From the IMG/VR virus record IMGVR_UViG_2917408641_000002, positions 1 to 44,997 of that record: 44,997 nt of DNA. The stretch is one strand, 5' to 3'. Positions 9,001 to 12,000 of this stretch are shown here, in pieces; position 1 is the stretch's first letter, and each line of letters starts with the position of its first letter. The stretch is from a virus (lineage: Duplodnaviria; Heunggongvirae; Uroviricota; Caudoviricetes). Position numbers: made by a program.

Positions 9001-12000
9001 CAGCTCGCCTGGTAGATCGCTGGCGCGAACTGGAAGAACAGATCCGTAAGCCAATGAGCGAAATCGAAATGGTTGCAGCGATGGCTCTTGAAGCCGTTCG
9101 TCAGCAGAAACGGATCACTCAGGTGGAAGAAAAAGTCAGCCATGTTGCCGAAACAGTCGAGCAAATCAAAAAGGGCACCATTCGTGAGGGCTATGCCGGA
9201 TATCGCCAACTGAAAGCGAAAACCGGTTTGTCAGATGATAAATGCCGCAATCTGGTGAACGCTTATCAAATTCCTACAGACACCCACGAGTTCATGACGC
9301 CGGACGGATTGTTATCACGTCGCGCAATTGTTGCTGTGGAACCGTTTATGGCTGCTTTTTATCGGGTTATGGAGGAAGCAGAACCGCGAGGGACTCGCTG
9401 GTATCACCCGAAAATGGGGTTGTTTCAGGTTATTGGCTGGCAGCGGTGAAAAAAAAGCCGGGTAGTAACCCGGCTCGCTCAACGTTGATACAGGCAACTG
9501 CATAAAGCAGGCCCAAGAATCCAAGAACGTTAACAAAAATACCAGCAAGCATATGAACGTTTCAAGCCTAAATATTGATTCTGCAATTTCGGGACGTTAC
9601 ACTGTCTCTGCACCTTATAAAGCGGGTGCTGGGATTGGAACCCCGGAATTGCTCGAGGCGATATATGACGCGCCAGCGTCTTTTTTATCGTCCATGCTCA
9701 CGCACGCCAGAATTATGGTGGGCTGGGCAGGGGAGCCGAAAGGCTCGCCGGTTTCCTTGAGCGCCGGTAGTTCCAACCCTGTTCAGTCCGCCACCAGCGA
9801 GCTTGGAACCTCCGGTGGTGGAAGTTTTTCACTGCTCAAGGAGGCTGCCATCATGGCTACAGTCCCAACTTCCCCATACCTGAAAATCGAAGTCGTCAAC
9901 GGCAAGGCCGTTACTACATCTCTTTTCGAATACCTCAAACTGTTGCGCCTTGCTGGTGTTCCGGGTTATATTTCTCGCGTTGCTGTAAATCCAGCAACCG
10001 GGCTTCGCATCCCGAAACATCACACAGGGCTGACACGCCATAAGCGTGTTTTTTTGTCTACGCACGTCTATTCAATGGCGGCTCAGATGGGAGCTTCTTC
10101 GGAAGCGCCGGTTTTCCCTTGTGTGTCCGGTAATGCGAATCCTGTCTGGGCTGCCACCAATCATGGTTTCGCATCCGTGGGTGGTAGCTGTAAAGCACAC
10201 ACACAAGGGGCTGTCACCATGACTACCACCACTACTCACCCATTCCTCAAAATTGAGACCGTCAACGGCAAGGCCGTTATTTTCTCCCTGCATGTTGCCT
10301 GCCATTTCAAGCGCATGCACCAGAACATTGTCGACAAAATCGAGTATCTGAACTGCTCGCGCGAGTTTTTCACCCGTAATTTCATACCCGGCACTTATCA
10401 CCTTTATGGCGATTCTTTGCGTGGTTATTACATAACTCTTGATGGTCTGATGATGCTTCAGCTTGGGTTAAGTCTGCGCACGATGCGGTACTACGAGAGC
10501 TGTATTGAAGCATTTCATGAGGTAGAGAACAGCCTGAATCTTACCGCTTTCCGCCGTAATCAATGGGAGGCGCGTCCATGATTAGTTACGAAATTATTAT
10601 TTCCACAACTGAATACAGAAACGATGTATCAGTTCGCACGGATACGTCTGTCTGGCACCGCCGCTATAAATCCAGGAAAACAGCGGAACGTAAAGCAGCG
10701 GAGATGTGTGAAACCATCGCAATGAAAGGCAGCCCGGTTAAATACATCACAACGGCGGAGGTGCGTCCATGATTCGTCGTGTTGTGAATTCTCTGTATCA
10801 CCGATACAACCGTTGCCCCCGTGTGGGGCAGTGGTTCACCACCAGCAACGGCCACGTTCTGCGGGTTTGCCTGGTCAATACAGAAAGCCAGAAGGTTGTC
10901 TGTCAGGTTCAGGGACGTACTCATACTCTGAGTTATCCGCTGGTGGCGTTTCAGTCCGGAAAAATGTTTAAACGCCTGGGAGGTGGCTATGCGTCCGTCT
11001 GATCTTCTGCTCGATTTTGGACATCCGGTTGCTTATTACCCTGGGCTCGTTAAATACATGGGAAGTCCGCACGCTGTTATTTTCTTTGGTCAGATTTTTT
11101 ACTGGCAGGATAAAACACATGCAGCGGAAGGCGTACATAAAACGCGTGAAGAGATACAACACGAAACCGGACTTACATTTGAACAACAGGCTGTAGCGCG
11201 TAAGCATCTTGTGTCCAGAGGCATTTTGGTTGAAACCAACAAGCGTCTTGAGCACAAAATGTTCTACCGTATAGATTGTGAGCGCCTTAATGAAATTATC
11301 AATGAAAACAATCAGCTTTCCCGAAATGGGGAAACCCGTTTTCGGGAAACTGTAAAATCCAATTTCGCGGAGAAGGGAAAGCCTTCACCGCGGACACGGG
11401 AAACCCCTCGCAGCGGAGAAGGGAAAACCAATTTCGATCTTACAGAGAATACAACAAAGATTACTTCAGAGAATACTACAGAGAGTAAAAACACTATTTG
11501 CGCATCCGCTGACGCGTCTGCACCAGCGCGTTCTGCCCGACAGGAATATTCACCGGAATTTGAACAGGCCTGGTAGGAATATCCCAAACGTGCTGGTGGT
11601 AATTCCAAGTCAGCAGCCTTCAAAGCCTGGAAAGCCCGTATCAGGGAGGGAATAAAACCGGAGAGCATGCTTGATGGCGTGAAGCGGTATGCCGCCTGGG
11701 TACGTGCGACAGGAAATACCGGCACACAGTTCGTGAAGCAGGCGTCGACGTTCTTTGGACCCGATCGTCACTTCGAAGACTTCTGGCAACAGCCAGCCGC
11801 TCCCGGAGGTGGGCGGCAGCGACAGGCTGATGTCCTGTCTGGCCTTGGTGCCATGTCTGACAAATTCGGTAAATCCAGTAACAAACTGACATTCTGAGGT
11901 GACAGCGATGATGACGTTTGGTCAGCATGAAAAACAATCAAGACTGCAGGCGCAAATGGATGAGCTCCAGGCAGAGCTGGCATTTGCGAAGACAGGGGAA

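Follow-up and report, generated by a model that had tools for sequence, protein, structure and literature searches.

Laboratory amber mutants of lambda gene O (e.g., Oam29) are suppressor-dependent. The locus described here is like them in that a CAG-type codon has become UAG in a phage initiator gene, the truncated product would by analogy miss the C-terminal portion, which brings in the helicase-loading partner, and a glutamine-inserting suppressor host would restore the wild-type protein. The origin of replication, here putative, also lies within the initiator's own coding sequence, as it does in lambda O. Unlike the lambda O ambers, the present allele is a natural one, fixed in a bacterial lineage and not selected as a conditional-lethal mutant. 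Unlike O itself, the protein falls outside the Pfam family Phage_rep_O and is encoded with DnaC-like and DnaB-like partners, not with lambda P.

The prophages Sp1-Sp18 of O157 Sakai include defective members that are possibly rescued by co-resident relatives (Asadulghani et al., 2009; PMC2669165). That report describes lambdoid and phiP27-like prophages with virulence cargo, multiple point defects, deletions and IS insertions, a combination also seen in the prophage examined here. In that study induction, replication and packaging were tested by experiment, whereas our comparison draws on lesions read from the sequence; the cargo there is Stx or LEE effectors, and here an IpaH-type E3 ligase.

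The closest described layout is that of phage phiP27 and of the Eru7 replication/regulatory region found in Stx phages (representative LC567818.1; Fagerlund et al., 2022; PMC8951638), and according to the paper that defines this region type nothing is known of the replication proteins of Eru phages. We analyzed a stretch of 44,997 nucleotides (IMG/VR record IMGVR_UViG_2917408641_000002, positions 1 to 44,997; hereafter the window) that shares the Eru7 series of CI-type repressor, Rha, Rha/Ash, O-like, DnaC-like and DnaB-like proteins, and has the Rha and Rha/Ash proteins beside cI by which Eru7 is recognized (PMC8951638). Its initiator gene is 95-96.5% identical at the DNA level to that of 20 Stx1a, Stx2a and Stx2d phages, including LC567818.1. 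The Eru7 Stx phages carry an intact 302-aa gene and stx; in contrast, the window has an amber codon in this gene, lacks stx, and has an IS66-family element before the lysis genes.

Gene structure and protein conservation

A single gene of 302 codons, running from ATG 10989 to the TGA that ends at 11897, is interrupted in frame by TAG 11574-11576, which is the only internal stop among the 305 codons between 10983 and TGA 11895-11897. The range given in the earlier note begins at 10983; GTG at that position is rejected as the start in favor of ATG 10989, at which the homologues are annotated to begin and which is preceded at 5 nt by the Shine-Dalgarno (SD) sequence GGGAGG. By tblastn, the ETEC1732 protein aligned to the window in one ungapped match of 302 residues (10989-11894, 95.7% identity), and both tblastn and protein alignment demonstrated that the sequences on both sides of the TAG are collinear with a single uninterrupted homologous protein. 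The window reads EFEQAW*EYPKRAGGNSK across the stop where an intact homologue reads EFEQAWQEYPKRAGGNSK, in agreement with the original remark that a conserved motif continues past the stop. DNA alignments with intact homologues, the check proposed with that remark, identified the replaced residue as Gln196, with C>T at 11574 turning CAG into TAG. The reading of the TAG as splitting one replication-organizer-like gene is thus upheld. The stretch after the stop, however, is not the separate ORF that the earlier note had described, since its first start codon is ATG 11667 and only 76 aa follow. Coordinates of these and other features are collected in Table 1.

Table 1. Features of the initiator locus and other parts of the prophage, in window coordinates.
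Feature	Position	Strand	Details
IS3-family (ISEc16-like) insertion	5140..6387	+	Early-left region; Pfam rve; 99.4% identity to annotated ISEc16-family elements
O-like replication-initiator gene, 5' part	10989..11576	+	195 sense codons and premature TAG; N-terminal module and linker
Putative origin inside initiator gene	11317..11490	none	Repeats, palindrome, AT-rich stretch
Amber codon	11574..11576	+	CAG (Gln196) to TAG by C>T at 11574
Initiator gene, 3' part, now untranslated	11577..11897	+	106 codons and TGA; conserved C-terminal module
76-aa remnant ORF	11667..11897	+	Begins at first in-frame ATG 3' of TAG; called by gene finders
DnaC/IstB-like AAA+ helicase loader, intact	11908..12786	+	Pfam IstB_IS21 3e-15, Bac_DnaA; full-length 292-aa tblastn match
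DnaB-like replicative helicase, intact	12783..14174	+	Pfam DnaB_C 1e-72, with DnaB N-terminal domain; full-length match of 463 aa at 96% identity
In-frame rusA-Q fusion ORF, 319 aa	14428..15387	+	86-nt deletion between short repeats
IS66-family element	17313..19928	-	Extent of tnpA/B/C ORFs; Pfam DDE_Tnp_IS66 2e-103, HTH_Tnp_1
G9 run, +1 insertion	33582..33590	+	Splits tail tape-measure gene (32947-34861) into 249 + 445 aa
A5 run, -1 deletion	36417..36421	+	Frameshifts gp44-like baseplate-hub gene (36265-37319)

Searches of Pfam and NCBIfam with the intact protein returned no family at E<=0.01/1, Phage_rep_O included, and a sequence search of the PDB returned no solved relative. Residues 2-176 match PHROG 9773, annotated as replication initiation O-like (E=1e-35), and the protein also matches PHROG 678 and 345, two further O-like families. 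The C-terminal module (residues ~185-284) is matched by PHROG 270, 26426, 1701 and 3729, and PHROG 23060 corresponds to exactly the 76-aa piece (76/76 positions). This module is 98% identical to phiP27 L17 and is found behind unrelated N-termini in phiP27, mEp460, POCJ13, and Ralstonia and Vibrio phages. Its conserved motifs are YPKRAGGNSK...FFGP...W, and in an alignment of seven phages 20 of the 24 invariant non-Met residues of the protein lie downstream of residue 196 and are lost from the truncated product. By analogy with lambda O and P, the module most likely recruits the DnaC-like loader and DnaB-like helicase encoded just downstream. For the 106 residues after the stop, AlphaFold run on the single sequence gave a model with a pLDDT of 50, which was unusable. 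Position 196 itself is Q, L, R or A in distant homologues, so any residue inserted there would probably be tolerated. The 76-aa remnant lacks the first 30 post-stop residues, which include 10 invariant positions in the seven-phage alignment, and its SD sequence is poorly spaced; it is probably not a functional gene.

Distribution and origin of the amber allele

Among 5,426 complete E. coli genomes, 373 contain a 31-mer with CAG at this codon, at 396 places in total, and the same 31-mer with TAG is found at 0 places; a 71-mer at the amber had no 100% match among 431 places. CAG is present in each of the 12 homologues whose DNA was compared at this codon. The stop is not conserved among homologues, being present in 0 of the 396 E. 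coli copies and in no phage copy, and the arrangement named in the earlier note as evidence against a split gene, two separate genes with a natural stop at this position, was not encountered. In GTDB, with a single genome for each species, the exact pattern of the TAG allele likewise had no match; this result is uninformative, the source strain not being among the species representatives.

On six other E. coli contigs, the gene is identical to that of the window in all 909 bases except for C at 11574, and an exact look-up demonstrated that the intact protein encoded on them (P0027) equals the window protein except for Q196. A single C>T step therefore separates the amber from an intact allele that is still extant, and this allele, together with the CAG of the homologues, bears out the first of the two readings offered in the earlier note, a genuine nonsense mutation. 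The TAG is common to four assembled records: GCA_000807695.3, the IMG/VR record UViG_2630968558_000008, Logan contigs (P0001) and Logan SRR6001586. Gene calls in GCA_000807695.3 and in Logan assemblies contain the exact 195-aa product (P0001). The draft assembly GCA_000807695.3 is 100% identical to window positions 6323-16576, and SRR6001586 differs from the window by 5 SNPs in 10,142 bp and keeps the TAG. As the codon recurs in four records, one of them differing by 5 SNPs, we conclude that it is not a sequencing artifact.

Relaxed selection after the amber was considered on the basis of 11 private non-synonymous sites (including the stop) against 2 synonymous ones in a comparison with five intact homologues, an excess not seen in the flanking genes. 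This was rejected, since the same substitutions occur together with Q196 on the six contigs; the private changes are older than the amber and uninformative on decay. Methylation by Dcm was likewise set aside as a cause: the C that mutated does not occupy the inner position of a CCWGG site, the neighboring CCTGG ending at 11572, and the amber is thus not a classical 5-methylcytosine hotspot.

Neighboring genes and putative origin

The initiator gene lies directly upstream of the DnaC-like and DnaB-like genes, the position characteristic of lambda-O-type initiators. Further upstream, the LexA/CI-type repressor is intact and 99% identical, and the Peptidase_S24 repressor is followed by a Phage_pRha protein (235 aa) and a Phage_ASH and pRha protein (342 aa). 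Within the initiator gene, the putative origin comprises a palindrome (11317-11349), three iteron-like direct repeats of 17 nt (GCGGAGAAGGGAAAGCC, at 11367, 11390 and 11413, spaced by 23 bp) and an AT-rich stretch (11430-11490) with 12-nt tandem repeats and a GC content of 30-40% when calculated per 40 nt. The whole stretch is near-invariant in five intact homologues, and its assignment as an origin follows the analogy of the lambda ori inside gene O.

Other lesions and cargo

The rusA-Q fusion ORF retains Pfam RusA (1-109 of 124) and Phage_antiter_Q. Alignment demonstrated separate rusA and Q genes in APEC O1; they are also separate in three intact-allele relatives (L021, L023 and L024), and fused in the other amber-carrying isolate (L006). 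The tape-measure gene has one extra G relative to ETEC1732, with a change of frame by tblastn, and is intact (637 aa) in ETEC1732 and UMNF18; its 249-aa product is also called in contig JNBP01000146.1 of GCA_000807695.3. The baseplate-hub gene is intact in RMDEC465 (351 aa), and the downstream piece of 293 aa is called in the draft assembly as in the window. As both frameshifts fall in homopolymers, sequencing error is in principle conceivable for them, but the draft assembly has the same products. A second apparent baseplate frameshift (37293) was traced to a defect in ETEC1732, the reference, and does not affect the window.

The phage tRNA cluster (16458-16767) and the TerB/lysis genes (from 20146) are separated by the IS66-family element, at a site that holds stx or other cargo in related phages. 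No stx was found between the cluster and these genes, this element being the sole occupant, and a contig of the draft assembly ends at window position 17347, as other draft contigs break at 6323, within the IS3-family insertion. The four tRNAs of the window have the anticodons CAT, TTT, TGT and TCC, none of them CUA; host tRNA genes lie outside the window. The gene for the IpaH-type effector (E3 ligase) has been kept.

Interpretation of the amber codon

The best explanation, to which we assign a probability of about 0.86, is a lineage-specific nonsense mutation in the O-like initiator of a defective, decaying, phiP27-like prophage that has retained its IpaH-type effector. Translation from ATG 10989 would end after 195 residues, giving a product that would keep the N-terminal O-like module and linker and lack the conserved C-terminal module. 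The iterons and AT-rich stretch of the putative origin are still in place. With such a truncated initiator, the prophage would be unable to begin its own replication after induction. The mutation, the codon it replaced, its confinement to one lineage, its recurrence in independent assemblies and the additional lesions are all observed; this loss of replication, the roles of the two protein modules and the origin we infer. Taken together, the amber, the rusA-Q deletion, the two frameshifts and the two IS elements, which are independent lesions, indicate a prophage locked in the chromosome and decaying, with its cargo gene intact. Basal read-through of UAG could give traces of full-length protein, and the initiator could be provided in trans by a related prophage in the same cell; E. 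coli genomes carry up to three copies of the gene. The case is the ordinary one of a broken gene in a degrading prophage.

Decoding of the amber by a host suppressor tRNA or a near-cognate tRNA-Gln, such that a (conditionally) functional initiator is still made, appears unlikely. As CAG is ancestral, a glutamine-inserting suppressor or first-position misreading by tRNA-Gln would yield the exact wild-type protein, residue 196 is unconserved in distant homologues, and the allele has lasted long enough for 5 differences in 10 kb to have arisen between two isolates. The remainder of the gene is identical to the intact allele, but this is equally expected of a recent null mutation. The suggestion of a suppressor-dependent gene in the earlier note finds no CUA anticodon among the tRNAs of the window, and the stop is private to one lineage; its absence from all 396 E. 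coli copies means that it lacks the conservation expected of a programmed signal, and the other disabling lesions speak against selection for a working phage. A consensus error, with CAG as the true codon, is highly improbable. The single-base difference from an otherwise identical intact allele and the two homopolymer indels, of a kind that long-read assemblies can yield, would fit such an error, but the same T is present in the NCBI draft, the IMG/VR contig, the Logan P0001 contigs and SRR6001586, which is not the same consensus, given its differences at 5 further positions. Short-read assemblies seldom contain substitution errors.

We consider it very unlikely that the truncation has acquired a function, with the 195-aa fragment binding the origin repeats as a dominant-negative factor against incoming Eru7-type phages or acting as a regulator, and the 76-aa remnant perhaps serving separately. 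The fragment keeps its start, its SD sequence and the entire N-terminal module, the putative iterons are intact, both pieces are called by gene finders, and PHROG 23060 coincides with the shorter one. However, the early-right operon lies behind an intact LexA/CI-type repressor and should therefore be silent in the lysogen; the sole post-amber change in the gene is non-synonymous and inside the fragment (I95M, in SRR6001586); the truncation is limited to one lineage; and the shorter piece lacks half of its domain's invariant residues and has a badly spaced SD sequence. The specific form of this idea, in which the fragment is kept as an exclusion factor that binds the origin repeats of Eru7-type phages, Stx phages included, and blocks their replication, is slightly less probable still. 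A natural two-gene organization, with the TAG as the native end of the first gene, has a probability close to nil: the modules do recombine independently among phages, but they form one fused ORF in every homologue examined (phiP27, Stx1 and Stx2 phages, mEp460, POCJ13, Ralstonia QkW1 and Vibrio D299), the TAG is followed by neither a start codon nor an SD sequence, and the stop is in none of the 5,426 complete E. coli genomes.

On the reading of a nonsense mutation, the annotation should show a single pseudogene in place of two hypothetical proteins at 10989-11576 and 11667-11897. The prophage itself should be classed as defective, being predicted unable to replicate or to assemble tails, and this status bears on whether the IpaH-type effector gene remains mobilizable. 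Beyond annotation the finding has little significance. The pair of alleles, differing at 1 of 909 bases, provides a natural control for function tests of the Eru7-type initiator, which is widespread and uncharacterized.

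Identity of the interrupted initiator gene

The TAG at 11574-11576 is the sole internal stop among the 305 codons of a frame running from GTG 10983 or ATG 10989 to TGA at 11895-11897. Translation across it reads ...SPEFEQAW*EYPKRAGGNSKSAAFKAWKARIREG..., bearing out both the position that an earlier note had assigned to the amber codon and its observation that a conserved motif continues directly past the stop. That note had begun the gene at 10983 and described two in-frame ORFs split by the TAG; the single frame stands, but an ORF 3' of the stop with a start of its own does not, and the start is ATG 10989, not GTG 10983. 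ATG 10989 has GGGAGG 5 nt upstream, and the equivalent ATG is the annotated start in homologues. Unless the UAG is decoded, translation must stop at codon 196, leaving a truncated product without the conserved C-terminal module.

The 915-nt stretch has counterparts in 480 complete E. coli genomes, 101 of which cover 80% or more of it at up to 97.5% identity, and in 20 Stx1a-, Stx2a- and Stx2d-converting phages, which cover 80% or more of it at 95.0-96.5%. In every record examined, the matching locus is a single 909-nt CDS of 302 aa, and homologues are named "phage replication protein O", "DNA-binding protein" or "LvrA C-terminal domain-related protein". The second feature listed for each match proved to be a 77-aa upstream ORF overlapping the start, not a second gene half. 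Sequence searches of Pfam, NCBIfam and PDB gave no match to the protein, which the Pfam search thus places outside Phage_rep_O. Its N-terminal part matches PHROG phage protein families for "replication initiation O-like" proteins (9773, 1e-35), and its C-terminal part families named "replication initiation protein", "DnaD-like helicase loader" and "primosomal protein". The protein is modular: in Klebsiella, Pasteurella, Acinetobacter, Ralstonia and Vibrio phages, residues 1-150 and residues 185-284 are each found joined to unrelated partners. Of the 24 non-methionine positions that are invariant across seven aligned phage sequences, 20 fall after residue 196.

The initiator gene follows the genes for CI-type repressor, Rha and Rha/Ash proteins and is itself followed directly by genes for a DnaC/IstB-like AAA+ protein and a DnaB-like helicase. 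This early-region layout is the "Eru7" type of Stx-phage regulatory and replication regions, and the Eru7 representative LC567818.1 is one of the matches to the 915-nt stretch. The authors of PMC8951638 state that no study has addressed how Eru-phage replication proteins work.

Other E. coli assemblies carry differently disrupted forms of the replication module, placed in the protein cluster of this gene (P0009/P0010): the initiator, to about residue 240, fused to the C-terminal two-thirds of the DnaB-like helicase (459 aa), and a 249-aa product in which it is joined to the final residues of the DnaC-like protein. Deletions in this module evidently recur among prophages.

Origin of the stop codon and alternative readings

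DNA alignments show CAG in place of the window's TAG in every intact homologue compared, so the replaced residue, which the earlier note proposed to find by such alignment, is Gln196. A 31-mer centred on the codon with T matched none of 5,426 complete E. coli genomes; with C it had 396 exact matches in 373 of them, and a 71-mer was never found at 100% identity (431 places). The window protein with Q196 restored occurs exactly in public E. coli assemblies (P0027). Base 11574 is the sole difference between the window and the 909-nt gene of six contigs drawn from different assemblies, and two relatives (L023 and L024) with an intact gene share 99.86% identity with the window over 8.3 kb. The single-base difference indicates that one C>T transition separates the amber from an extant intact allele. 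Relaxed selection was considered, on an excess of private non-synonymous changes, and rejected, since the intact twin allele shows that these changes predate the amber.

The exact 195-aa product and T at 11574 are present in four records: NCBI GCA_000807695.3 (contig KN714377.1, 100% identical to window 6323-16576), IMG/VR contig UViG_2630968558_000008, contigs of the Logan assembly collection with the identical product (P0001), and the Logan assembly of run SRR6001586. The last shares with the window the TAG and ten other differences from intact relatives, and differs from it at five other sites in 10,142 bp; by comparison with the intact relatives, the window has the derived state at one of these sites and SRR6001586 at four. 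The shared TAG and the five private differences indicate that two or more distinguishable isolates carry the amber by descent. A sequencing or assembly artefact is very improbable given the T in four records, SRR6001586 being distinguishable.

A natural two-gene arrangement, which the earlier note named as what would refute its reading, was looked for and rejected: all distant homologues are single ORFs, none with a natural stop here. Programmed read-through was also rejected, since a stop conserved nowhere fails the test for a programmed recoding site. No phage-encoded suppressor was found among the four tRNAs of the window (table); the CAT tRNA, called Met by ARAGORN, is probably a lysidine-modified Ile tRNA, as its APEC O1 homologue is annotated tRNA-Ile. 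A host suppressor, encoded on the chromosome outside the window, could decode the UAG if one existed; insertion of Gln would restore the wild type, and position 196 appears tolerant by comparison, being Q, L, R or A among distant homologues.

Re-initiation at ATG 11667, the first in-frame ATG after the amber, would yield the 76-aa ORF that gene finders call there, but GGAG is only 3 nt from this ATG, and ten invariant positions are lost along with the 30 residues that separate the stop from it. A functional N-terminal fragment is improbable: the gene sits behind an intact repressor, and its only substitution since the amber arose (I95M) is non-synonymous and falls inside the fragment; action as a dominant-negative exclusion factor we regard as very improbable. 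We conclude that the interrupted initiator is a case of the familiar point-mutational decay of a cargo-carrying prophage, in line with known biology.

The remnant ORF 11667-11897 (+) has an exact counterpart in PHROG 23060 (76 positions, unknown function), and this family therefore appears to be built from fragments of a broken or truncated initiator gene.

Putative origin and consequences for replication

In lambda, the origin lies inside gene O, and O recruits P-DnaB. The palindrome, direct repeats and AT-rich stretch in the linker of the window gene resemble that origin in layout and, by this likeness, are a probable origin; they are almost invariant among intact homologues. Within 11316-11499 (+), five substitutions, all non-synonymous and in the linker, distinguish this allele from other E. 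coli alleles. They are common to its amber and intact forms, in a 190-bp repeat/AT-rich stretch otherwise nearly invariant; one (11373 G>A) brings repeat 1 closer to repeat 3. These substitutions may mark a candidate initiator/origin specificity variant.

We infer that the repeats are the binding site of the N-terminal module encoded by the same gene, and that the C-terminal module would recruit the DnaC-like and DnaB-like pair as lambda O does P-DnaB. Because the C-terminal module is missing, the truncated initiator would be unable to start replication, and the window gene would be, functionally, a naturally occurring equivalent of lambda O amber mutants. Since translation ends some 330 nt short of the next gene, polarity may also lower expression of the downstream helicase genes. 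Taken with the altered Q and the frameshifts in tail genes, the amber predicts a prophage that can neither replicate nor form infectious particles unaided. A co-resident related prophage might still rescue it; such rescue is documented for defective prophages of O157 Sakai (PMC2669165). The locus should be annotated as one pseudogene instead of two hypothetical genes, and the two alleles, one base apart, form a natural pair for study of an uncharacterised Eru7-type initiator.

Other lesions and intact genes of the prophage

Genes were compared one by one with the yecE-integrated prophage of E. coli ETEC1732, then with RMDEC465, UMNF18 and APEC O1.

Coordinates of features within the initiator gene and elsewhere in the prophage.
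Feature	Position	Strand	Remarks
Palindrome	11317-11349		Within the gene's linker; from sequence
Three 17-nt direct repeats, 23-bp spacing	11367-11429		Within the gene's linker; from sequence
AT-rich tandem stretch	11430-11490		Within the gene's linker; from sequence
rusA-Q in-frame fusion ORF, 319 aa	14428-15387, junction near 14725	+	86-nt deletion
Four tRNA genes, back to back	16458-16767	+	CAT, Lys-TTT, Thr-TGT, Gly-TCC; none suppressor
ISEc16-like IS3-family element	about 5140-6387	+	Early-left region
IS66-family element	about 17313-19928	-	Between tRNA cluster and lysis genes
Tape-measure gene, split	32947-34861; G-run 33582-33590	+	+1 G in G9 run
gp44-like baseplate-hub gene, frameshifted	36265-37319; A-run 36417-36421	+	-1 A (A5 vs A6)
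IpaH-family NEL E3-ligase gene, 767 aa, full length	41731-44034	-	Right end of prophage

The deletion that joins rusA to Q is flanked by short repeats (TTGTGCG.G..CAGCT) and takes away about 21 residues from the end of RusA and 9 from the start of Q. SRR6001586 has the same fusion, which is absent from the near-identical relatives with an intact initiator. The tape-measure pieces are 249 and 445 aa, versus G8 and a 637-aa protein in homologues, and the NCBI draft assembly calls the identical 249-aa piece. The baseplate-hub gene is intact at 351 aa in RMDEC465. ETEC1732 has its own, different frameshift in this gene, near the equivalent of 37293, and the UMNF18 gene is also annotated as frameshifted; these separate frameshifts point to recurrent breakage of the gene among related prophages.

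Draft-assembly contigs break at both IS elements, and the IS66-family element occupies the slot of stx in related phages. The integrase, repressor, DnaC-like, DnaB-like, terminase, portal, capsid and sheath genes are full length. The IpaH-family protein combines its NEL E3-ligase domain with an unusually long leucine-rich-repeat region of near-identical units, whereas RMDEC465 has a 547-aa IpaHe at the equivalent place; such a type III effector suggests a Shigella or enteroinvasive E. coli host.

Two parts of the 342-aa Ash/Rha-type protein (9553-10581, +), encoded at 9553-9924 and 10000-10575, each match the 221-aa Ash protein of ETEC1732, suggesting an internal tandem duplication; the 342-aa form also occurs in the intact-allele relatives. 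At the right window edge lies an 82-aa ORF (44749-44997, -), which may encode a DinI-family protein.
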